A stretch of 64,000 bases of DNA from contig CALXXY010000002.1 of assembly GCA_944392815.1 (NCBI GenBank), positions 152,257-216,256 on the forward strand. The letters run 5' to 3'. The notes beneath the pieces were generated by a model. The model worked only from the letters and a program-made list of their open reading frames with translations. It searched no databases and was not told where the DNA came from. Below are positions 12,198 to 25,480 of this stretch, in pieces. The DNA comes from an uncultured Alphaproteobacteria bacterium (GTDB taxonomy: Bacteria; Pseudomonadota; Alphaproteobacteria; Rs-D84). The number at the start of each line of letters is the position of its first letter. The stretch's first letter is position 1. The translations under genes were made by a program, and so were the position numbers.

Positions 12198-12449
12198 TTA
12201 TTTAATTGGCGGAAAACAATCGCCATCGGCCGGACAGCAATTGAACCCCAAATCACCCATATCGGTATATACCTCGCCCGCACAGCAACCGTTTTCATCA
12301 ACCGCCCCACCGTCAGGACATGTAATTGTATAATCCGCGCTGTGTGCATGATTTCCTGCATACAGGGCGATTCCGTATCCACAAAATCCACCCACCAAAA
12401 ACCATACAACACATATTAAAATTATTTTCCAATTTAATTTTATTTTCAT
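12198..12449 (-). CDS. Small membrane-anchored Cys-rich protein
   Basis: TM plus CPDG...GCC.GE.YTDMG....CCP.DG.C.PPI module shared with 12446-13114; overlapping start/stop. Confidence 0.8.
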   Translation of the reverse strand: MKIKLNWKIILICVVWFLVGGFCGYGIALYAGNHAHSADYTITCPDGGAVDENGCCAGEVYTDMGDLGFNCCPADGDCFPPIK

Positions 12450-13114
12450 AACGCATTACCATCATTTATCGGTGGATAGCACGTTCCGCCATCATCTGGA
12501 CAACATGCAAATACTAAATTCCCCATATCGGTAAAAGTTTCTCCATCGCAACAACCAAATTGATTGGGTTTGCTGCCGTCCTCGCACAGGCCAGACGCAA
12601 CATTTCTGGCGGCTGTCTCGGCGTCCACCTGGACAGATTTTGATTTATCAATTTCATTACAATCGGCATCATATTGATTCTGTAATAATTCCGTATCTGT
12701 ATCCGACACACCATTTGCAACCAATGTATCTATATCAGATTTTAATTCATTACATAAATTCTGACGCCCAATTAAATATTCGTCCAACGCAGATTGCGCC
12801 GTCATAACAACAGTTTCCACAACGGTTGTCACCGCGGGCGCCGCCGCCACCACCGCAGACGACGCAGACACACGCCCCGTACTGGTATTGCGCCGCCCAG
12901 TGGCCGAACGCGAACAGTCACTGCGATATTGCGCCTGTAAACTGGTCAATTCGGAACTTTGCGCATCTGTTGGCGATTTAATCGCGGACAGTTCATTTAT
13001 GCGCGCCTGGATATCCGCACAACTGGCGCGTTCAGACACAGCCGCCGCATGCGCGCCACCGGCCATCACACACGCAATTATTAATGCCGAAAAATATTTG
13101 CGAATTTTATTCAT
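12446..13114 (-). CDS. Secreted Cys-rich hypothetical protein
   Basis: Signal peptide (AHA-A), two C-x~30-Y-x3-C helical repeats, C-terminal six-Cys module. Confidence 0.8.
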   Translation of the reverse strand: MNKIRKYFSALIIACVMAGGAHAAAVSERASCADIQARINELSAIKSPTDAQSSELTSLQAQYRSDCSRSATGRRNTSTGRVSASSAVVAAAPAVTTVVETVVMTAQSALDEYLIGRQNLCNELKSDIDTLVANGVSDTDTELLQNQYDADCNEIDKSKSVQVDAETAARNVASGLCEDGSKPNQFGCCDGETFTDMGNLVFACCPDDGGTCYPPINDGNAL

Positions 13115-13835
13115 TTATAATTTGTTCCATTTTTAATATGAAATCAGTTGCCGGATCAATCAGTTGTTCAACTTTATCCAAAAATTCCTGGGCCTCGTGC
13201 TGCATATCCAGTTTTTTAAACGTATCTATGACAATTTCCGCATCACGCGTTCCCATATTTTCAGTCGGCTGCAACGCACTGGCAATTTCCAATTCCCGCA
13301 ACGCCAACGTTTTATACATATCCGTATTATCCGCGCACCCCCTGTCCGCCAAAGTGCTGTATGTATCCGCATTTGATAAATGGTTCACATAACTTGCGCT
13401 GTCTTCGGGAAACAGTCGTTGTTTCAACAATTGTTCAATACGCACACACGTGGCCATAACCTCTGGCTGCGATTCCGCCACAGGCGATGCGACCACTTCG
13501 CGTTCAATCACAACCAACCGCCCCGCACAGCCGTTTGAATATGCGGTATTTAAATCCTGCAAAGTTTTTGCATCGTCCGGTGTTGCACCACGTTGGGTAA
13601 TAGACACAATTTCATTGGCGATGGCATCACACTGTTGCGCATTCAACGCATTGCGCGCCGCACCATCATCACGATACGACAATCCCAAAATTAATCCACA
13701 CGCAAACAGCCCAGCCAATGCAACGGCACTCCACACTTTATGCCCCACGCTGCAACAATTAATTGGGCACGCCTGTGCGGATTTTGCCACCCGCACTGTT
13801 TTATTTGACGATTTTTTTGCAACTGATTTTTTCAT
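13107..13835 (-). CDS. Membrane-anchored hypothetical protein (paralog of 11346-12176)
   Basis: TM; one C-x~30-Y-x3-C module; one ~60-aa NADTY..LA..GC..N module; SD GGGGGA upstream. Confidence 0.8.
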   Translation of the reverse strand: MKKSVAKKSSNKTVRVAKSAQACPINCCSVGHKVWSAVALAGLFACGLILGLSYRDDGAARNALNAQQCDAIANEIVSITQRGATPDDAKTLQDLNTAYSNGCAGRLVVIEREVVASPVAESQPEVMATCVRIEQLLKQRLFPEDSASYVNHLSNADTYSTLADRGCADNTDMYKTLALRELEIASALQPTENMGTRDAEIVIDTFKKLDMQHEAQEFLDKVEQLIDPATDFILKMEQIINE

Positions 13836-13879: not shown

Positions 13880-14590
13880 TTATTCCACAATCCCGTTATT
13901 GATTGTAATTGTTCTGTCTGCACGCGCAGCCAAATTCATATCATGCGTCACAAATAACATAGCCATTTTTTTATCACGCACCAAATTCAACAATAAATCA
14001 AACACAGCCACCGCATGTGCAGGATCCAAACTGCCGGTTGGTTCGTCCGCCAACAAAATTTCCGGCGAATTCGCCAACGCCCGCGCCACAGCCGTACGCT
14101 GTTGTTCCCCGCCCGACATTTCACCCGGGAAATGCGACGCACGATGCGCCACATTCGCGGCCCGCAACAATTTCATCGCCCGCGCATTTGCATTGCGTTC
14201 GTCCACGCCATTTGCCAACATAGGCAACGCAACATTTTCCACCGCTGTAAAATCAGCCAACAAATTATGCCGCTGATAAACAAATCCTATTTTACGCCGC
14301 CGCACAGCCGTACGCATTTCATCGTCCATTTTCTGCACAGGCGTCCCCGCCAACAATATACTGCCGCTGGTCGGTTTATCCAACAACCCGACACATTGCA
14401 ATAACGTAGATTTCCCACTGCCCGACGGTCCAACCAACGCAACAATTTCCCCACGCCGCAGGTCAAATCCCCCACCACGCAAAATGTGCAACGGTTGACC
14501 GCCTTCAATAAACGTTTTTTTAATATCACGCACAGACAACACAACGTCATCATTTGATATTTTCGACAAAGATTTCAATATATTCGCCAT
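13880..14590 (-). CDS. lolD: Lipoprotein-releasing ABC transporter ATPase LolD
   Basis: GPSGSGKST, IGFVYQRHNLL, MSGGEQQR, LLADEPTG, VTHD; directly follows lolC/E. Confidence 0.9.
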   Translation of the reverse strand: MANILKSLSKISNDDVVLSVRDIKKTFIEGGQPLHILRGGGFDLRRGEIVALVGPSGSGKSTLLQCVGLLDKPTSGSILLAGTPVQKMDDEMRTAVRRRKIGFVYQRHNLLADFTAVENVALPMLANGVDERNANARAMKLLRAANVAHRASHFPGEMSGGEQQRTAVARALANSPEILLADEPTGSLDPAHAVAVFDLLLNLVRDKKMAMLFVTHDMNLAARADRTITINNGIVE

Positions 14591-14605
14591 GGGTCAAAAT
14601 TCCCC

Positions 14606-15859
14606 TTATTCATTTCTTAATACCTCGACCGGGTCAGTACTGGCCGCTTTCCACGCTGGATACAGCGTTGCCAAAAACGCCAACAATACCGCAATCAGCG
14701 CAATTCCCACGACGTCCCCCACCACCAATTTCGACGGCAATTCAGACAAATAATATAACTCGGCCGGGAATAAATCGCGTCCTGTCGCCCATTGGAAAAA
14801 TTGCCGTATGGGTTCGATATAAATCGCAATAACAACCCCCAGCCCCGTTCCAATCAGTGCACCCAACACACCGATACTGGTGCCCGACAAAATAAATATT
14901 TTCATCATAGATTTGCGCGAAACACCAAACGTACGCAACACAGCAATATCAGTCGATTTATCTTTGACCAACATAACCAAACTGGACACTATGTTAAACG
15001 CAGCAACGATAACGATTAACATCAATATCAAAAACATAACATTGGATTCCACCTGTAATGCGCCAACAAATCCGCGATTTAAATCACGCCAATCGCGCAC
15101 CACAAATCCGTCCGGCAATAAATTGGCCAACGCATCACGCACATCTGTCGTCTGTTCGGGATCACGCAGGAACAAATCAATATGCGTGACAGCATTTGGG
15201 ATATTCAAATATTTTTGTGCCGTTTCCAATGGCATAAAAATATATCCTGAATCATATTCATACATACCCATGAAAAACGAAGACATCACCGGATACGACA
15301 TGATCCGCGGCATAGACCCAAACGGTGTTGGCGTTGCATTATTTGCCGACACCAACGAAATCTGGTCACCCATACCCACGCGCAACGCCCGCGTCAGCGA
15401 CGCCCCAGCCACCAATTCGCCATCATTAATTTTATCCAGCGGTTTTCCGTAAATTTTCGTACCTGTTTCCGTTTTCGCCGCCAAATCAGACATACGTATT
15501 CCACGTATCATCGCCCCGGTATTATTACCATTGGCGGTGGCCATAACCTGGCCCTCGGCAATGGGGACGATACCAGTTGCATGTTCTGCGACAATTTTAT
15601 TTTGGCGCATTTTATCAATTAAAAAATCATAATCAGTTATTGCGCCGTCCTGGTAATAAACAACCACATGCCCATTCATTCCAACAATACGCGACAACAA
15701 CGTATCATGAAATCCGCCCATCACAGACATCACAACAATCAGCGTTGCCACCCCCAGCGTAATACCGATTAACGACACCCACGACACAACCGAACCAAAC
15801 CCACGACGTTTGGCCCACAAATATCTGAATGCAACTTTTCTTTCCAGACGTGAAAACAT
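14606..15859 (-). CDS. lolE: Lipoprotein-releasing ABC transporter permease LolC/E
   Basis: GITLGVATLIVVMSVMGGF, GMYEYD, VAAFNIVSSLVMLVKDK, LATLYPAWKA...PVEVLR. Confidence 0.92.
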   Translation of the reverse strand: MFSRLERKVAFRYLWAKRRGFGSVVSWVSLIGITLGVATLIVVMSVMGGFHDTLLSRIVGMNGHVVVYYQDGAITDYDFLIDKMRQNKIVAEHATGIVPIAEGQVMATANGNNTGAMIRGIRMSDLAAKTETGTKIYGKPLDKINDGELVAGASLTRALRVGMGDQISLVSANNATPTPFGSMPRIMSYPVMSSFFMGMYEYDSGYIFMPLETAQKYLNIPNAVTHIDLFLRDPEQTTDVRDALANLLPDGFVVRDWRDLNRGFVGALQVESNVMFLILMLIVIVAAFNIVSSLVMLVKDKSTDIAVLRTFGVSRKSMMKIFILSGTSIGVLGALIGTGLGVVIAIYIEPIRQFFQWATGRDLFPAELYYLSELPSKLVVGDVVGIALIAVLLAFLATLYPAWKAASTDPVEVLRNE

Positions 15860-15876: not shown

Positions 15877-17220
15877 TTAACCTTCTAAAAATGCGCGCAA
15901 CGCATCGCCAACGAGTGGTGCGTCCGCCCCGGACGGCAATTGCCCCGCATCAACAATAGATATAATACGCGGCGACATAAACACCACCAATTCAGCAAAC
16001 GGACTGATTAACGTTTCAGGCGTCGTCACAAACGAATGTGTTGGAATACCAATAATTACATAATTATCCCCAACATCAGACGGTATATTAAACGAAGACA
16101 ATTCCCCATTGCTGGTACGCAAAACTATTTTGGCGTCTATTTTATTTTTACCACCCCAATCGCCATATGTACCGGTTGCACCGATTACCAAATCGGTTTC
16201 CAATCTGTCTTCTTTGCTGCATTGTCCAATATCAAAACGCGATTGCCAACCATTGGGAATCACGAACGTACCCTGGGAAATCAAAACAACATTGGATTGC
16301 TGTGCCAAAAATTCCTGTAAAGTTTTTGTATTAATCTCAGGACTGACCACCAGCGCACGCCCCACAACACCCGGAATTGACATTTTAATATTTTTATCCC
16401 CGAACGCAGGCAATAAATTCATCCAGATAATTGGATTGTCCGTCCGCGGATACACACGATACACATCAATGTCCCACGCAATCATATATTTTTTGGACGC
16501 AACATCAGAAATAATTTTGGCCACTTCGCGTTCTGTTTGATAATTACCCTCGAACACCATGGTTTTATCCTGCCAATCAACCAATAAATTACGCACATCA
16601 GCCCCATGCATAGCGTCCAACAATGCCATAATAATACTTTCGTTTTTTGGCATTTTAATCAACCATTTGCCCCGATTATCCAAATGAATTTCTGCATTTT
16701 CTGCATCATATGAATAATACGCACGCCCCATTTTCGCCATCAGTTCCACACTGTCGGCCAAATTTCCCGCGGTAATGGTGCCCGATATAGTATCATTCAA
16801 TTCACCATCTTCGACAACGGCAATATCAGTCCCCTGCAACAGTTTATCCAATGCCTCTTTGACGGTTAACTGTTCAAATTCGTAATCAGACACCTGTAAT
16901 TCTGGCAACGCATCACCCGTGCCCAACCGTATCATTTCTATTTTTTCTTCGGGTACAACGGACACAACAGTTTGATTATCCCAATCCACAGTGCACCGCT
17001 TTGGTAATTCGATGGAAAAACGCTGGGCGGTATCAGTTGTCAACGCGGCCTTTTTCGGGAAAATAGGCACAGAATTTTCATCAATCACAAAATTTTCAAC
17101 AACATTTATGGTGTCGTATTGCGGAATATTTTCCTGGGCATTTTTCTGTGTGCACCCCAAACATACCAGCGCAGTCACAATCAACGCCCCGCCGCCAAAC
17201 AATTTGTTTAATATTTTCAT
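15877..17220 (-). CDS. Outer-membrane lipoprotein, secretin-like (possible type IVb pilus PilN/BfpB homolog)
   Basis: Lipobox CLG-C; secretin N-domain-like segment (TVKEALDKLLQGTDI); beta-rich C-terminus ending ELVVFMSPRII, like secretin C-termini. Confidence 0.6.
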   Translation of the reverse strand: MKILNKLFGGGALIVTALVCLGCTQKNAQENIPQYDTINVVENFVIDENSVPIFPKKAALTTDTAQRFSIELPKRCTVDWDNQTVVSVVPEEKIEMIRLGTGDALPELQVSDYEFEQLTVKEALDKLLQGTDIAVVEDGELNDTISGTITAGNLADSVELMAKMGRAYYSYDAENAEIHLDNRGKWLIKMPKNESIIMALLDAMHGADVRNLLVDWQDKTMVFEGNYQTEREVAKIISDVASKKYMIAWDIDVYRVYPRTDNPIIWMNLLPAFGDKNIKMSIPGVVGRALVVSPEINTKTLQEFLAQQSNVVLISQGTFVIPNGWQSRFDIGQCSKEDRLETDLVIGATGTYGDWGGKNKIDAKIVLRTSNGELSSFNIPSDVGDNYVIIGIPTHSFVTTPETLISPFAELVVFMSPRIISIVDAGQLPSGADAPLVGDALRAFLEG

Positions 17221-17257
17221 GTTGTCCCCTTGCCTTTCGTTATCGCCTGTGGTCAAA

Positions 17258-17584
17258 CTATATGTTCATTATACGTTCGAATTCCTCCAGCGTCATTTCA
17301 TAAATAGGTTTTTGTGTTGGCGTGGTCAATTCACGCACATGTTCATATTGTTCACCAAATTTTTTTATCACCGCCGCAACGTTTGCCGGCACAGCATTTT
17401 TATTTGCGTCCAACAACCGCCGCCCGTATTCATAAACATATTCCAACACGTCCGCCAAAAAGAATCGCCCAACATAGTTTTCCATTGCGATTCCGCCCTT
17501 TTGCACGCATATTGCAGACATGACCATTGTCATCTGGTTATACAAATTCGCCAGTTTAATAAAATTTTGAACTGTCAACGCCAT
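17258..17584 (-). CDS. Hypothetical protein
   Basis: 108-aa ORF with SD AGGAA, co-oriented with and adjacent to the secretin-like gene. Confidence 0.6.
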   Translation of the reverse strand: MALTVQNFIKLANLYNQMTMVMSAICVQKGGIAMENYVGRFFLADVLEYVYEYGRRLLDANKNAVPANVAAVIKKFGEQYEHVRELTTPTQKPIYEMTLEEFERIMNI

Positions 17585-17660: not shown

Positions 17661-18041
17661 ATGAGAATTAAATACATAGCGTTTGCATTAATATTGACCG
17701 CATGTGCGTCCGCCAATCGCGGCAGTATTGATGACGCCACAATATTGAATTGGGAAAACGAATCCGTCACCATGGAACAATTCGTCCGCGATCACAAATC
17801 GTGCCTGGGCATAGATAAACCATCATACATGCCCCGTTCCCGTATTGCGAAACTGCTGTCCCCGAACCAAAGCAGTATTATGCCCGATTGGGACGGCCTG
17901 TGGGTGACATTCCAATCCAATGAATACAGGGACGTTGGCCAACGCGCATTGTTATCAGTGCCACGAAACACCACGTCTAAATCGGTTGGTGCATATCGTA
18001 AATGTATGTTCCGCCGCGGGTATTTGTTGCGCGCGATGTAA
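17661..18041 (+). CDS. Hypothetical lipoprotein
   Basis: Lipobox LTA-C; D...C ... Y..CM..RGY pattern. Confidence 0.7.
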   Translation: MRIKYIAFALILTACASANRGSIDDATILNWENESVTMEQFVRDHKSCLGIDKPSYMPRSRIAKLLSPNQSSIMPDWDGLWVTFQSNEYRDVGQRALLSVPRNTTSKSVGAYRKCMFRRGYLLRAM

Positions 18042-18092: not shown

Positions 18093-18773
18093 ATGAAACG
18101 TTCCATATGGTTTTGGCTGTATTTTGTTATCGCAATTATTTTGGCGGTATATTTCGCAACCCAGATTATAATTACCTGCACGGGTCGTGGCGATTTATCA
18201 TATGTGCGCAACATTTCCATTACCGCGGACGTCGCAAACAAAGATTTAACCCCCATCGCGGCCGCGGCGGCGGTGGCCCCGGGCACACGTGCATTTGGCC
18301 ACACACTGGACGAAATAAATGCCCGCATTGCGGCAACCCCGGGCGTTAAAAACAGCGCTGTGCGCCGTTTACCAAACGGGAATCTGTCTGTACATGTTGA
18401 ATTATATCAACCTGTTGCCCAATGGACAGATGGGTTGCAGTATTATCCACTGTCGGCCGACGGCACAATTGTAAACAAACCAACGGACACGCGTGATGAA
18501 AACACGGTCGTTTTTCGTGGCGACGTACCGGACAACATTGGTGATATAACCGCCGCCGCCCATAATATTATCGCTGATTTGAATTATTTGGAATTTATCG
18601 AACACAGACGCTGGAATTTGCATACAACAGGCGGCATTACTGTAATGTTGCCTGAACATAACCCAGCGGACGCGATTGCACGCCTGAACGTATTGAACCA
18701 AAATCACCAGATTTTATCCCGGGACATCGATATTTTGGACATGCGTGACGATGCGCGAATATTGGTAAAATAA
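18093..18773 (+). CDS. ftsQ: Cell division protein FtsQ/DivIB
   Basis: TM, POTRA segment PGVKNSAVRRLPNGNL, PVAQW, RRWNL, C-terminal DMR. Confidence 0.85.
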   Translation: MKRSIWFWLYFVIAIILAVYFATQIIITCTGRGDLSYVRNISITADVANKDLTPIAAAAAVAPGTRAFGHTLDEINARIAATPGVKNSAVRRLPNGNLSVHVELYQPVAQWTDGLQYYPLSADGTIVNKPTDTRDENTVVFRGDVPDNIGDITAAAHNIIADLNYLEFIEHRRWNLHTTGGITVMLPEHNPADAIARLNVLNQNHQILSRDIDILDMRDDARILVK

Positions 18774-18780
18774 ACACGAA

Positions 18781-20565
18781 ATGAATTTGCTGGATTCATC
18801 TTTTTTATGCTTGGACATTGGGACGGGCGGTGTCCGCGGTATTGCGCACCACGTGCGAAATGGTCGCATTGCAAAATCGGCCGTGTATTCTGTGGACAAC
18901 ACGGATACAGTATTTGCATTAAAATCTGTAATCGATGAATTGGAAAATCAAATTGGCGATCATTTTGATAACGCGTATATCACAGGCAACCTGGGGCCAA
19001 CCATATTTAAAATCAGTCCCAAAACAAAAAATTGGCGTGGCGAACATAAAATAGTCCCATCGGACGTGACGGCACTGGTTTCACAAATTACCCCGCCTGA
19101 TGGATATTATCCGTTGCATATAATTCCATTACGATACAAAACAACAAACATTCAAAAATTATATTCGCCCATTGGATATACAGACACGTCCCTGACCGCG
19201 ATATTCAGCGCAATATTTTATTCCACCGAATCCACGGAAAAAATCACATCCATTTTGCGCGCTGCACATATACAACCATATTCTTTTTATGATCCCCAAT
19301 TTTTACAGGCGATGGAACACCACGCAAAAAAATCTGCGGAACTCTATATTGATTTTGGCGCTGAATTCACCAGTATTTTAATCTGGTTGGATAACGGCCC
19401 GGTATTTCAACAAAAAATTCCATTTGGCGGGACAAACATTACAAATGACATTTCTGAAAAATTGGGAATTGATTTTAACGTCGCTGAACAAATAAAACGT
19501 CGCGTTGCATGTATGATGCCAAACGAAATGGACAGATTTACCCCCGCCGACGCCGCATACGATTTTTCACGTGCGGACGTAAATGGAATAATTGTCCCAC
19601 ACATGGTTGACATTTGCGCCCGTATCAAGGACGCCTGTGCCGCCCCATTCAAACACCGCATGCCGAACAAAATATTTATATCTGGTGGCGGGGCAGAAAT
19701 TGAATCAATATCCGATTTTATTGAAAATGTGTTCGGATTACCCGTGGAAAACATTCATGTATCGGCCAGTGTCCAGTCACTGTCCACATACATCTGGAAC
19801 GCGGAATCGGCACACCGCAACGCATACAGCGCACGCAGCGAACGCATAAATAACATACGCACACGCATCGTATCATTGTTTACACCGCGTCCCAAAAAAC
19901 GGATTCAATTTATCCCTGTAATGCCCAGCACCCTGTGTTTTGATATGAAAAGTCCGGAAACATATTCCATGTTTCGTTCGGGTGGAATATCAATGATACA
20001 CGTTGATATAATGGACGGGCTGTATGTGGAAAATATCCGTGGCAGTATTGCTGAATTAAAATATATCCGCACGCATACAAATGCCCACCTGCATGTACAT
20101 TTAATGACCGAAAGTCCGACCGTCTGGGCATCAGACGCCATTGCCGCCGGCGCCAACACAATTATTGTATCAACGAACACATCAGGCGTGCGTGCAGCCA
20201 TTCGTCAAATTCACGCGGCGGGCCGCCGTGCGGGCGTTGCGTTAAATCCCGACTCGTCAGTCCAGATATTAAAACCAATCCTGCGCGAATTGGACGAGGT
20301 TATGGTCATGGCCGTCGCCCCCGGTGCCGCGGGCCAACCATTTGACGACAGTGTTTTGCACAAAATATCAGTATTGGCCGCAACGCGCAAAAAACACGGA
20401 TTAAAATATATAATTTCTGTTGATGGCGGAATAAATAACGAAACCGCCCAAAAATGCTGGGCGGCGGGCGCAGATTTATTGATCAGTGGTTCATACCTGG
20501 CACACAGTGCGGATTTCCCATTGGCCGTACAAAGTTTATTAAAACATACCGACAAAACAAATTAA
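18781..20565 (+). CDS. FtsA-like actin-fold domain fused to ribulose-phosphate 3-epimerase (Rpe)
   Basis: N-terminal part: LDIGT, IDFGAEFT, IPFGGTNITNDI...AEQIK, ISGGGA (FtsA). C-terminal part: IHVDIMDG, HVHLM, GVALNP, MAVAPGAAGQ, VDGGIN, GADLLISGS (Rpe). One uninterrupted ORF. Confidence 0.9.
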   Translation: MNLLDSSFLCLDIGTGGVRGIAHHVRNGRIAKSAVYSVDNTDTVFALKSVIDELENQIGDHFDNAYITGNLGPTIFKISPKTKNWRGEHKIVPSDVTALVSQITPPDGYYPLHIIPLRYKTTNIQKLYSPIGYTDTSLTAIFSAIFYSTESTEKITSILRAAHIQPYSFYDPQFLQAMEHHAKKSAELYIDFGAEFTSILIWLDNGPVFQQKIPFGGTNITNDISEKLGIDFNVAEQIKRRVACMMPNEMDRFTPADAAYDFSRADVNGIIVPHMVDICARIKDACAAPFKHRMPNKIFISGGGAEIESISDFIENVFGLPVENIHVSASVQSLSTYIWNAESAHRNAYSARSERINNIRTRIVSLFTPRPKKRIQFIPVMPSTLCFDMKSPETYSMFRSGGISMIHVDIMDGLYVENIRGSIAELKYIRTHTNAHLHVHLMTESPTVWASDAIAAGANTIIVSTNTSGVRAAIRQIHAAGRRAGVALNPDSSVQILKPILRELDEVMVMAVAPGAAGQPFDDSVLHKISVLAATRKKHGLKYIISVDGGINNETAQKCWAAGADLLISGSYLAHSADFPLAVQSLLKHTDKTN

Positions 20566-20966
20566 TCTGCAATTTCAATGTGACGACTGTCACCATCACC
20601 GGTAATATAAATATGAATTGTGTTTTCCGGCAACATATCAGCCGCAATATCAGGCCATTCGATTAATGTTATATCGTTCTGCACAGCATACGGCAAACCA
20701 ATTTCGACCAATTCTGATTTATCGTTTATTCTGTATAAATCGAAATGCGATATCCCGTCATAGTTCTGCACAATGGTAAACGTCGGACTGGGCACAACAG
20801 TATCAGCCCCGCGCAACGTTTGAATAATCGTGCGTGCAATTTCAGATTTTCCCATACCCAAATCACCATGCAGCGCAACAACACACGGCGCATGCAATTT
20901 TTTTGCAAACTCGCGCGCGAATTCGTGTGTTTCATTCAAATTTTTTAAATCGTATGTTTTTGACAT
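20562..20966 (-). CDS. tsaE: tRNA t6A37 biosynthesis ATPase TsaE
   Basis: LHGDLGMGKS, VPSPTFTIVQNY, HFDLYRI, LIEWP. Confidence 0.95.
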   Translation of the reverse strand: MSKTYDLKNLNETHEFAREFAKKLHAPCVVALHGDLGMGKSEIARTIIQTLRGADTVVPSPTFTIVQNYDGISHFDLYRINDKSELVEIGLPYAVQNDITLIEWPDIAADMLPENTIHIYITGDGDSRHIEIAD

Positions 20967-23005: not shown

Positions 23006-25480
23006 ATGGCATTAAAACCCCGTTATAAACGCAGAATCTTTTGGTCCGCGCTGGTTGTCGTGGGATTGTTTATCATGGCCATTGCCATTATCCCACCATT
23101 AATTACATTGAATAATCTGAAACCGAAAATCCAGCAAACTATTGCGGAACAAACCGGTATCACGGCCCAGATAAACGGCGACGTACATTTCAGCTTACTG
23201 GGGCGCACAACGATTGTCGCGCACGATGTCACGATATCAAATGGCACCATTGGCGCATTAATGTTTTCGGTTCCCATCACACATATATTTGACCTGGATA
23301 ACGCCCCGCTGTCTGGGAAAATCACGATATATAATGCAAATTTATCAATTGGCAATTTGATACCTGGACAATTTAATCATGCAATTGAAATACATAATTC
23401 AGAAATAAATTTCAAAAACCGCGAATTTGAAATTATCGATGCCACATTGGACAACGGCCATCTGGTTGGGGTAATTCGCACAAAACAACATAAATATGAC
23501 ATAGATTTCGAAAACGATGTTTTTTACGTCCGCAATCAAAACGATAAATTGGAAATATCCGGCAATATATTCACAGACGGTTCTGTGCGTGGCACAATTT
23601 CCATGGAAACAGACAATATCAATCGTTGGTTCGGATTTGCTGAACCTAAAATAGACAAAACAATCGCATTGACCATGCAATTTGATTGGGACGGTGGTCG
23701 TGGTTGGAAATTCACAAACATAAAAATGCCAAAAATTTCTGGCAACATTACAATCAACCCCGACGGCAGTAAAATTGTTGAATTGCGTGGACATGATTTA
23801 ATATATGATTTGTCATTTTTAACCCGCCCATCGCGTATATTTTACCAAACCCAATTTGATTTGGATTTCACAGGCCAATTACAATTCGGTACGCGTACAT
23901 TCAAACACCTGGCGGTTAATGCAATTGGTACACGCAACGAAATACAAATCGAAAATATCATCGCAGACGATATCGCAATCAATGGCGGCACCATCGATGC
24001 AAACGGCGCACACAATTTAATGATAACTATGCCGTACCACAGCGCACCCGCTGTATGCACGTTTTCTGGCACCCCAGACGTATGGCGTTGTGATAAATTT
24101 GCATACGATGATTACGTTGGCACGATATCTGTATCGCCCGAATATTTTGATTTGGTTGTATTTTCAGAACGCCCATCACCAAACCGCGCAAACGCAATTC
24201 GCGATTTATTAAAATTCGCCCCACGTGGAAAAATAGATTTTGAATTCGCAGACATTGCGGGCACATATGAAATCGACGGCGATAAAATAATACCACAATA
24301 CAGATTTGCAAACGGAAAAACTTTGTATTGGTTAAACCCAAACATGAAACAAATACCACAATTCATGCGCGACACAATTGGTAATTTCACATGGCGCAAC
24401 GATGTAATGTATTTCACCCCTGATTCAGGACGTTGGAATCTGGCTTTGACAGACACATATTTTCGTATTTCCGGAACAAATATCAAAGAATGGTTCCCAG
24501 GCATCGATTTAAATGCGTTTAATAACCTGCCCTATGTTATGTCTGGCACATACCGCGGCGACACAGTATCAAAACTGGAATTAAAAATCGCAGGTCATGA
24601 ATTTACTGGCACAATATCAAACAACAATATCACATTGCACACCGATATATTCGATTTGAATTCATTTATCAACCAAAATTACATTGATAATTACGAAGAA
24701 TTATCGTTTTTAACCCTGCCCCCGATTACGGTTCCATTCAGTTTTCCTATGACTGTTTCGCTGTCTGCGGACGCATTGATATTTGATGGGAATATGTTTA
24801 AAAATTTTGTGTATTCATTAAAACCAAACATTCAAACTTTTTCAATCACAGACCGCGAACGTGGCAATTTGTTGGCAACATTATCACGCGATGGCAACAA
24901 ATACAAAATATTCGCACAATTAAATAAATTCTTGTTAAACGGCACAATTCTGGGCACACAAATGCCACTGAATATCCGCGACAGCATGATAACAGGCGAA
25001 ATCAACATGCGCACATTTGGCAATATCACACATGATTTAGAATACAATCTGCGCGGCGATGTTGATTTAACATTTAATGGCGGATATTTAATCGGCATTG
25101 GCGTTGACTATTTATTTGCGTCCGCAAATCAAATCAACACATTTAACGCAGAATATGCATTGTCATATGCACTGGACGGCGGCGAATCAGCAATCAAAAC
25201 AATGCGTATAATTGGCGAATACAACAGTGGCGATTTTATCACCACCGCCCCGATTGAATTGCGCCTGCGCCACACAGATGTCACCGGCGAATTGGAAATA
25301 ACCGACGGCGCAATGCAGGCAACATTTAACTTAACACTGCGTGGTACATCACCCGTACCGGCGCCAATTGATTTGACCATAAACCCAAATGGCACACGTG
25401 AATATTCACTGTCGGAAATTATGATGAATTTCGACGCAACATATATGCGCGATTTTGTTCGCACACACGACAGATTTTAA
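23006..25480 (+). CDS. Large AsmA-like envelope protein (hypothetical)
   Basis: N-terminal TM followed by KPKIQQTIAEQTG...INGDVHFSL (AsmA N-terminal pattern); beta-rich body. Confidence 0.6.
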   Translation: MALKPRYKRRIFWSALVVVGLFIMAIAIIPPLITLNNLKPKIQQTIAEQTGITAQINGDVHFSLLGRTTIVAHDVTISNGTIGALMFSVPITHIFDLDNAPLSGKITIYNANLSIGNLIPGQFNHAIEIHNSEINFKNREFEIIDATLDNGHLVGVIRTKQHKYDIDFENDVFYVRNQNDKLEISGNIFTDGSVRGTISMETDNINRWFGFAEPKIDKTIALTMQFDWDGGRGWKFTNIKMPKISGNITINPDGSKIVELRGHDLIYDLSFLTRPSRIFYQTQFDLDFTGQLQFGTRTFKHLAVNAIGTRNEIQIENIIADDIAINGGTIDANGAHNLMITMPYHSAPAVCTFSGTPDVWRCDKFAYDDYVGTISVSPEYFDLVVFSERPSPNRANAIRDLLKFAPRGKIDFEFADIAGTYEIDGDKIIPQYRFANGKTLYWLNPNMKQIPQFMRDTIGNFTWRNDVMYFTPDSGRWNLALTDTYFRISGTNIKEWFPGIDLNAFNNLPYVMSGTYRGDTVSKLELKIAGHEFTGTISNNNITLHTDIFDLNSFINQNYIDNYEELSFLTLPPITVPFSFPMTVSLSADALIFDGNMFKNFVYSLKPNIQTFSITDRERGNLLATLSRDGNKYKIFAQLNKFLLNGTILGTQMPLNIRDSMITGEINMRTFGNITHDLEYNLRGDVDLTFNGGYLIGIGVDYLFASANQINTFNAEYALSYALDGGESAIKTMRIIGEYNSGDFITTAPIELRLRHTDVTGELEITDGAMQATFNLTLRGTSPVPAPIDLTINPNGTREYSLSEIMMNFDATYMRDFVRTHDRF

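Follow-up and report, generated by a model that had tools for sequence, protein, structure and literature searches.

Almost all walled bacteria have FtsZ, for which FtsA is regarded as the membrane anchor. Here we describe a gene that joins ftsA in frame to rpe, which encodes ribulose-phosphate 3-epimerase, in an uncultured alphaproteobacterium of the order Rs-D84, within a family in which, with one dubious exception, genome searches returned no FtsZ. The gene lies in a stretch of 64,000 nucleotides (the window; contig CALXXY010000002.1, positions 152,257 to 216,256) of a genome, G000, that comprises 927 kb in 18 contigs and is 96.8% complete; coordinates below are window positions, and residue numbers are those of the 594-residue fusion protein. 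We confirm that the fusion is a real gene encoding one polypeptide. It is a new domain architecture, old and fixed in one family, and it marks what appears, from searches of that family's genomes, to be a previously unremarked FtsZ-less clade that retains FtsA. The FtsZ result is more surprising than the fusion itself. We consider it probable that an ancient loss of the ftsA stop codon produced the fusion for the whole family, that FtsZ was lost, and that the FtsA half now serves as a scaffold without an FtsZ ring, with Rpe tethered to it.

An earlier, sequence-only reading of the window had described a single 594-residue open reading frame (ORF) behind ftsQ, with FtsA features in the first roughly 350 residues followed by a complete Rpe barrel. 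ORF and domain searches bear this description out, and an AlphaFold2 model divides the frame as follows.

18781..20565, + strand: ftsA–rpe fusion ORF, one frame of 594 aa plus stop, no internal stop.
18781..19803, + strand: FtsA core with subdomains 1A, 1C, 2A and 2B (residues 1–341, from the AlphaFold2 model).
19429..19656, + strand: FtsA subdomain 2B (residues 217–292, approximate model-derived limits), shortened and less conserved.
19807..19881, + strand: long basic helix containing RINNIRTRIVSLF (residues 343–367), assigned as helix by DSSP in the AlphaFold2 model.
19882..19917, + strand: junction or tether TPRPKKRIQFIP (residues 368–379), free of stop codons.
19918..20562, + strand: Rpe (β/α)8 barrel (residues 380–594), matched by PF00834 and NF004076.

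The predicted product has a mass of about 66 kDa. Its N-terminal half matches the Pfam FtsA family PF14450 at residues 189–323 (E 7.5e-15) and aligns over residues 30–337 with positions 38–356 of the 371-position NCBIfam ftsA model TIGR01174; the phosphate-1 DxG, phosphate-2 DxG and adenosine GGG motifs of the FtsA nucleotide-binding site are all present in G000. The C-terminal half matches the Pfam family Ribul_P_3_epim (PF00834) at residues 392–573 (E 1.1e-43) and passes the NCBIfam rpe subfamily model NF004076 (residues 380–587, 170.3 bits, cut-off 165), while its score against the rpe equivalog model TIGR01163 is 151.4 bits, under the cut-off of 212.6. All three motifs that had been read from the sequence (HVD, HLM and VDGG) can be located, as HVDIMDG at residue 407, HVHLM at 438 and VDGG at 547. 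G000 has all of H407, D409, D412, H440, M442 and D548, which we take to be the metal and catalytic ligands of Rpe, and each of them is conserved at 90% or more in a 64-sequence alignment (A1). The junction, at about nucleotides 19882–19917 and so near the 19890–19925 given previously, contains no stop codon, and no Shine–Dalgarno-like sequence is visible upstream of codon 380, again as had been stated.

The AlphaFold2 model, built on alignment A1, has a mean predicted local distance difference test score (pLDDT) of 92.5. It places the FtsA core at residues 1–341, the helix at 343–367, a tether with pLDDT below 50 at 369–374 and the first Rpe strand at residue 380; its predicted template modelling score (pTM) is 0.61, so that no fixed interdomain orientation or interface is predicted. 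In Foldseek searches with the N-terminal half, the closest entries are the FtsA structures 3wt0, 3wqt, 1e4g, 7q6f and 4a2a, with target-normalized template modelling (TM) scores of 0.70–0.74 over 346–390 columns, whereas the PilM structure 5eox scores lower (0.55). The C-terminal half retrieves Rpe structures with target-normalized TM scores of 0.84–0.92, root-mean-square deviations of 1.4–2.2 and 25–34% identity; for 2fli these values are 0.92 and 1.4. The FtsA core aligns collinearly with the FtsA proteins of the outgroups. Between the two halves, the helix at residues 343–367 aligns with the C-terminal helix of outgroup FtsA proteins, which end in ...KVKKWIDDNF or ...LHRWIKEYL, and the basic stretch that follows the helix, together with FIPxMPSTL, aligns with the Rpe N terminus. 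Lysine and arginine together number 9–15 in the helix in 20 sequences of genus g1, to which we compare 6–12 in other genera. The consistent feature of the RINNIRTRIVSLF region is thus a strongly basic helix, located where outgroup FtsA has its C-terminal membrane-targeting helix.

The fusion is shared throughout the family. Among 201 genomes, including G000, from 18 genera of one GTDB family in the order Rs-D84, 200 contain a match to the fusion, as do 179 of the 179 high-quality ones. All 150 family matches listed cover the query from residue 1 or 2 to about 588–594, in frames of 590–634 aa, and the ten weakest-scoring genomes of other genera (29–46% identity) each hold one open frame of 575–625 aa with both halves. 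Row-by-row inspection, which covered these and altogether 160 family matches, found no reversion to split ftsA and rpe genes among them. Within the same genus, 23 of 24 other genomes have a full-length match at 49–75% identity; flags of '1 TAA/TAG' in eight matches of this genus, candidates for stops at the junction, correspond in 8 of 8 loci to the natural terminal stop. Relatives therefore share the fusion. Of the 120 best matches in a collection of 5.8 billion proteins, 119 have both Pfam domains, and the names given to these best matches are 'ribulose-phosphate 3-epimerase' only (Candidatus Enterousia intestinigallinarum; Alphaproteobacteria bacterium), an annotation that currently hides the FtsA domain.

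Independent assemblies support the sequence across the junction, without a stop or an indel. A single contig from an independent study (X5) covers all of positions 18700–20600, differing by 19 substitutions and no gaps, and a contig piece (X11) covers 19561–20000, also gap-free; none of the four runs compared showed an insertion or deletion. Three substitutions near the junction amount to a V to M change and a synonymous Arg change. Raw reads of a further run (X21) covered 8 of 30 bins with 10 reads at 90–99% likeness, derive from a relative and were not used as evidence. Contigs from an RNA library (X19) cover parts of both halves; DNA carry-over is possible, and we do not claim transcription.

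When 1.84 billion representative proteins were searched exhaustively with phmmer, the best 150 matches included no independent FtsA–Rpe fusion outside the family. Proteins of the collinear fusion type, whether complete or fragmentary, extend to E 5e-54; from E 3e-35 the matches are ordinary Rpe proteins of 210–230 aa. Two candidates, P0212 and P0263, were rejected as FtsA–Rpe fusions, having other extensions, unrelated to FtsA. P0263 is a 362-aa fusion of RuvX (Holliday-junction resolvase-like) with Rpe; it is similar to the fusion described here in that Rpe carries an N-terminal neighbour fusion, and differs in the partner. Rpe seems prone to N-terminal fusion with the products of neighbouring genes. 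A literature search, supplements not covered, returned nothing on a fusion of FtsA with ribulose-phosphate 3-epimerase.

The arrangement in sister families shows how the fusion arose. In six of six outgroup loci (families f2, f3, f5 and f6), ftsA and rpe are separate, with frames of 412–443 and 199–252 aa, respectively. One of these loci (L032) has the order ftsQ–ftsA–rpe, with the 3′ end of ftsA overlapping the start of rpe; in another (L036), rpe begins at the ftsA stop; in a third (L033), ftsQ and ftsA are ordered as in L032 and an ABC-transporter-like gene lies between ftsA and rpe. Because ftsA and rpe are tightly packed neighbours in the sister families, the fusion arose by loss of the ftsA stop codon: from an ancestral ftsQ–ftsA–rpe order, stop loss, presumably with a small frame adjustment, joined the two genes.

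We find the absence of a detectable FtsZ to be more extensive than the sequence-only reading had indicated. That reading noted that ftsZ does not follow the fusion, which is correct, as a convergent tsaE and then uvrB follow it; the remark is an understatement, since FtsZ was found neither elsewhere in G000 nor, with the one dubious exception, in the family. In G000 there is no match to PF00091; the best match to TIGR00065 has E 0.03 and is a 93-aa frame; tblastn with six sister-family FtsZ proteins reaches E 1.2 at best; a clade hidden Markov model (HMM) built from the same six proteins reaches E 2.4 at best when all 9013 frames of 50 aa or more are scanned with filters switched off; and the one occurrence of the tubulin glycine signature in a regular-expression search is in a spurious 58-aa frame. 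None of the family's 201 genomes, 179 of them of high quality, has a PF00091 match. An order-wide search found FtsZ in 1 of 298 other genomes of the family, compared with 25 of 29 genomes of other families (f3, 17/19; f2, 3/4; f6, 3/3; f5, 2/2; f4, 0/1). The sister-family matches lie at E 1e-35 to 1e-51, in genomes of similar size and quality, and the family genomes without an FtsZ match include G102 and G070, which are listed as single-contig assemblies. This result changes what the FtsA half can be doing.

Among the exceptions to the sister-family pattern are two outgroup genomes. G027 (family f4, 93% complete) has ZapA and matches neither FtsZ nor the FtsA or Rpe half of the fusion; G034 (family f2, 92% complete) has no FtsZ match, whereas G037, of the same genus, has one. 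Either FtsZ was lost independently more than once in the order, or the assemblies have gaps here.

Much of the remaining division machinery is retained. FtsQ is encoded in the window (PF03799), and FtsK is found in 40 of 41 relatives including G000. G000 has two SEDS (shape, elongation, division and sporulation) proteins and two class-B penicillin-binding proteins (bPBPs); one SEDS gene stands in an mraY–ftsW–murG context, a RodA-type SEDS gene lies with a bPBP gene on contig C6, and MreB is present. FtsB and FtsL were not detected in G000, although both are small proteins and the FtsL control was positive only in Escherichia coli. A 100-aa ORF in the usual position of ftsL, upstream of an FtsI-like bPBP gene, is a candidate divergent FtsL. 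The locations of this ORF and of zapA are as follows.

L051:2083-2382 (G000 contig C2), − strand: ORF of 100 aa without a Pfam family, immediately 5′ of the FtsI-like bPBP gene.
G000:C1:150567-150755: ZapA, outside the window.

Subdomain 2B is the docking site of the FtsZ C-terminal peptide; the title of structure entry 4A2A reads 'FtsA:FtsZ(336-351)'. We compared 13 family sequences with six FtsZ-bearing outgroups of similar overall divergence. The ratio of family to outgroup mean pairwise identity is 1.05 for 1A, 1.05 for 1C, 0.98 for 2A and 0.78 for 2B, and the 2B segment measures 76 aa in G000 compared with 85–86 aa in five of six outgroups. The difference between 2B and the rest is −0.25 (column bootstrap, 95% confidence interval −0.42 to −0.06), in a test in which the sequences are phylogenetically related, the outgroups are few and the subdomain limits come from a model. 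Only 3 of 265 sliding windows of equal width are as low as 2B, and the lowest of them, which starts at residue 214, practically coincides with 2B. This pattern is as expected if FtsA lost its FtsZ partner and kept its other jobs.

Both halves of the fusion are under purifying selection. The ratio of non-synonymous to synonymous substitution (dN/dS) is 0.128 for the FtsA half and 0.092 for the Rpe half in the pair L026/L027, and 0.035 and 0.053 in the pair L016/L017; because selection maintains both halves, both are likely to work. Among 30 orthologues, 29 have intact Rpe motifs HxDxxD, HxHLM and VDGG, and 27 retain the phosphate-1 Asp of FtsA. Within the FtsA half, conservation in A1 is highest at G14, G193, G302 and G304, glycines of the ATP site that are each at least 90% conserved, and at H113, P116 and Y119 of the 1C motif. 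The ratio of FtsA to Rpe identity is 0.58–1.06 in 36 inter-genus pairs of the family, compared with 0.61–0.89 in 15 pairs of FtsZ-bearing outgroups, and stand-alone FtsA is likewise more divergent than Rpe in FtsZ-bearing relatives. A general relaxation of FtsA after the loss of FtsZ, which we considered, is not seen in these ratios.

Neither half appears to be backed by a second copy, a point that the sequence-only reading had left to be checked. The fusion is the single PF00834 match in G000 and in each of five divergent family genomes, and it is the sole FtsA-like gene in G000 by TIGR01174, the remaining matches being MreB and a weak match on contig C14 (a 655-aa frame, E 5.4e-5). A candidate second ftsA on contig C8 was rejected, the match being MreB. 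Transketolase is present in G000, and according to PMC12306168 the non-oxidative part of the pentose-phosphate pathway, apart from transaldolase, is encoded in most Rs-D84 genomes.

Taken as a whole, the account that we favour would run as follows. The FtsA half would serve FtsQ, FtsK, FtsW and FtsI as a scaffold close to the membrane in the absence of a Z-ring, perhaps with MreB and ZapA as partners, and the internal basic helix would still contact the membrane. A flexible tether of about 12 residues would link this helix to the Rpe barrel, which, judging from its residues, would be an ordinary epimerase in a truncated non-oxidative pentose-phosphate route. Subdomain 2B would be relaxing while the rest of FtsA stays constrained. 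The fusion itself would be near-neutral or streamlining, permissible in a tightly packed operon.

Several observations weigh against this account. On the side of the fusion protein, the FtsA half scores 81.7 bits against TIGR01174, far under the equivalog cut-off of 175.85, and it evolves faster than the Rpe half (44–71% compared with 60–83% identity within the genus); dS is saturated in most pairs, and the dN/dS values come from the two clean pairs only. The segment RINNIRTRIVSLF had been called amphipathic, a description that we could not uphold: its hydrophobic moment of 0.47 is indistinguishable from that of shuffled sequence, 91% of shuffles scoring at least as high. In genus g23 the linker helix is deleted. 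Three divergent lineages (L039, L042 and L047) no longer have the phosphate-1 Asp. In L039 the Rpe motifs are gone as well, YTT replacing HxD and VCGD replacing VDGG, and the phosphate and adenosine motifs of the FtsA half are missing; the frame is still open, and it is the only Rpe homologue of its genome.

G049:C1, L039:1498-3264, − strand: L039 fusion, 589-aa open frame.

Because of the motif losses in L039, not all members of the family have two enzymatically active halves. On the side of FtsZ, all genomes are metagenome-type assemblies, so that its absence is to be read as 'not found'. ZapA, which normally acts by binding FtsZ, is present in 24 of 25 genomes of the genus including G000, which is unexpected if FtsZ is gone. 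Finally, one family genome, G305, has an N-terminal FtsZ fragment of 225 aa that is 50–53% identical to sister-family FtsZ.

L053 = G305:C168:1-2238: FtsZ fragment at a contig end, in a metagenome-assembled genome (MAG) 89% complete with 7% contamination.

Further ORFs precede the fragment on this 2238-bp contig. We regard the match as dubious, though contamination is not proven.

These points bear unequally on the other explanations. The retention of the FtsZ partners FtsA and ZapA, the MAG-type nature of all genomes and the G305 fragment would fit an FtsZ that is present but hidden, being too divergent or unassembled, with conventional division. We find this scarcely credible: four independent search methods were negative in G000, 297 of 298 other family genomes, single-contig assemblies among them, lack FtsZ where sister families have it in 25 of 29, the G305 fragment sits at the end of a short contig in a MAG with contamination, and 2B is selectively relaxed. 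With its normal partner gone, the FtsA half could instead be a non-functional relic, a translated leader that gives rpe its promoter and start codon, and its score under the TIGR01174 cut-off, its faster evolution and the degenerate ATP-site motifs of L039, L042 and L047 would suit such a relic. Yet its dN/dS (0.035–0.128) is as low as that of the Rpe half, its roughly 345 codons have been kept as an open frame of conserved length over 18 genera despite reductive pressure, conservation of 1A, 1C and 2A equals that in FtsZ-bearing outgroups (0.98–1.05) with only 2B relaxed, and the fold is confidently predicted, with the ATP-site glycines and the 1C motif most conserved; we therefore think a relic very unlikely. 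A somewhat less remote, still improbable, alternative is that one gene gives two proteins, through cleavage of the tether or internal initiation near Met380. The tether (368–379) is disordered, basic and Pro-containing, codon 380 is ATG in G000, and a database cluster (P0137, 209 aa) starts exactly at the equivalent MPSTLCF. Position 380, however, is Met in only some of 30 orthologues and Leu or Ala elsewhere, so an internal start is not conserved, and codon 380 has no visible Shine–Dalgarno-like sequence before it; other short matches start at query residues 159, 211, 277 and 437, which suggests contig-edge fragments, P0137 probably included; and persistence of the fusion over 18 genera indicates that separation at the gene level is not required.

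The remaining alternative concerns why the fusion was kept. Functional coupling of division and metabolism is a hypothesis in which the Rpe half would be an oligomerization hub or a pentose-phosphate sensor and the fusion would have been selected when FtsZ was lost. Rpe enzymes are oligomers. Fusion and FtsZ loss fall on the same family stem (200/201 fused and 0/201 with FtsZ, against outgroups unfused in 6/6 and with FtsZ in 25/29), none of the 160 matches inspected has reverted to split genes, and L039, which keeps a 589-aa frame without the Rpe motifs, hints at a non-catalytic role of the whole polypeptide. Against this, the adjacency of ftsA and rpe is older than the fusion and occurs in FtsZ-bearing relatives, so that a functional rationale is unneeded; the disordered tether and the pTM of 0.61 predict no fixed interdomain interface; Rpe catalytic residues are kept in 29 of 30 orthologues, as for an ordinary enzyme; and one co-occurrence on one branch is a single event, not a correlation. 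We consider such coupling doubtful. Because rpe already stood directly behind ftsA in sister families, an opportunistic or streamlining fusion is favoured over a regulatory link. The sequence-only reading had offered a covalent link between the divisome and pentose-phosphate metabolism, or a streamlining fusion; the covalent FtsA–Rpe link is real and streamlining is favoured, and we found no evidence of coupling between division and the pentose-phosphate route.

The two halves of the protein can be compared with their stand-alone counterparts. Like canonical FtsA (Thermotoga maritima 1E4G and 4A2A, Staphylococcus aureus 3WQT, Vibrio and E. coli 7Q6F and 7Q6D), the N-terminal half adopts an actin-like fold with a 1C insert, is encoded directly behind ftsQ, carries DxG phosphate and GGGA adenosine motifs in most orthologues, and has a basic helix after the core at the position of the membrane-targeting helix. 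In contrast to canonical FtsA, this helix is internal and followed by an enzyme, there is no FtsZ found for it to anchor, 2B is about 10 aa shorter and less conserved, and the TIGR01174 score is under the cut-off. The C-terminal half shares with stand-alone Rpe (Streptococcus pyogenes 2FLI, human 3OVQ) the same barrel and the metal and catalytic motifs, and passes NF004076; it differs in its 379-residue N-terminal extension of FtsA plus helix, in scoring under the TIGR01163 cut-off, and in the existence of one fusion lineage (L039) without catalytic motifs. OpgH, UgtP and KidO/GdhZ, which are separate proteins acting on FtsZ, offer a conceptual parallel in that an enzyme of metabolism associates physically with the cell-division apparatus. 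Here, by contrast, a covalent bond joins the enzyme to FtsA, FtsZ was not found, and any regulatory effect is hypothetical.

Division without FtsZ has precedents. Chlamydia is not known to have FtsA. The Rs-D84 lineage, which is gut-associated and alphaproteobacterial as opposed to an intracellular member of the Planctomycetes–Verrucomicrobia–Chlamydiae (PVC) bacteria, also stands apart from the other recognized FtsZ-less groups, the Mollicutes and intracellular endosymbionts. In the parts of the cited articles available to us, FtsZ-less bacteria are said to include Mollicutes, Chlamydiae, Planctomycetes and reduced endosymbionts such as Carsonella (PMC4164004), Wolbachia of supergroup J is described as having lost almost all divisome genes while keeping MreB, RodA and PBP2 (PMC10591338), and MreB-dependent division is proposed for both Chlamydia and Wolbachia supergroup J (PMC10591338, PMC4164004). 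As far as these accounts go, the Rs-D84 family resembles Chlamydia and Wolbachia supergroup J in having no ftsZ found, a reduced genome, and MreB, RodA and PBP2 kept (PMC10591338, PMC4164004), and differs from Wolbachia supergroup J in that it keeps FtsA, ZapA, FtsQ, FtsK, FtsW and FtsI. Our literature search, with the scope given above, returned nothing linking Rs-D84 or Enterousia with FtsZ or FtsA, and the available portion of the main Rs-D84/Enterousia genome description contains no FtsZ, FtsA or 'division' (PMC12306168). The system is a combination of known kinds, a neighbour-gene fusion and FtsZ-independent division, and is not categorically new.

The genes around the fusion in the window are as follows.

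18093..18773, + strand: ftsQ, 226 aa, PF03799 (FtsQ_DivIB_C) E 1.5e-9; its stop lies 7 nt before the fusion ATG.
20562..20966, − strand: tsaE, convergent, TsaE PF02367 E 8.6e-33; its end overlaps the fusion stop codon by 4 nt, and uvrB is next.
17661-18041, + strand: 126-aa ORF without a Pfam family, with a lipoprotein-like start (…LILTAC…).
15877-17256, 17258-17584 and 12446-13835, − strand: ORFs upstream of ftsQ without a family in a Pfam search.
13880-15859, − strand: pair of an ABC (ATP-binding cassette) ATPase (PF00005) and a MacB/FtsX-like permease (PF02687 with PF12704).
23006-25480, + strand: 824-aa protein in which AsmA (PF05170) matches at residues 17–133 alone.

The ORFs without Pfam families upstream of ftsQ measure 458, 107, 126, 221 and 241 aa, and because they occupy this position, the usual ddl or mur genes do not precede ftsQ. 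The pair at 13880-15859 resembles transporters of the LolCDE or MacB type more than it does FtsEX.

The members of the family are reduced-genome gut Alphaproteobacteria, one close match being named Candidatus Enterousia, and the clade comprises hundreds of sampled species from animal guts, for which the FtsA–Rpe fusion provides a clean, easily scored marker. It represents a natural experiment on the roles of FtsA and ZapA without FtsZ, and the fusion is a ready-made construct for asking whether a divisome-tethered metabolic enzyme has a function. A bolder proposal, which we hold to be speculative and on balance unlikely, is that the whole family, which is peptidoglycan-bearing, divides without FtsZ by means of a divisome organized by FtsA–Rpe, in which an oligomerizing or metabolite-sensing Rpe half, together with ZapA, would take over from the FtsZ ring the task of bringing FtsQ, FtsK, FtsW and FtsI together at the right time. 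If true, this would be a new, FtsA-centred form of bacterial cytokinesis, gated by pentose-phosphate status.

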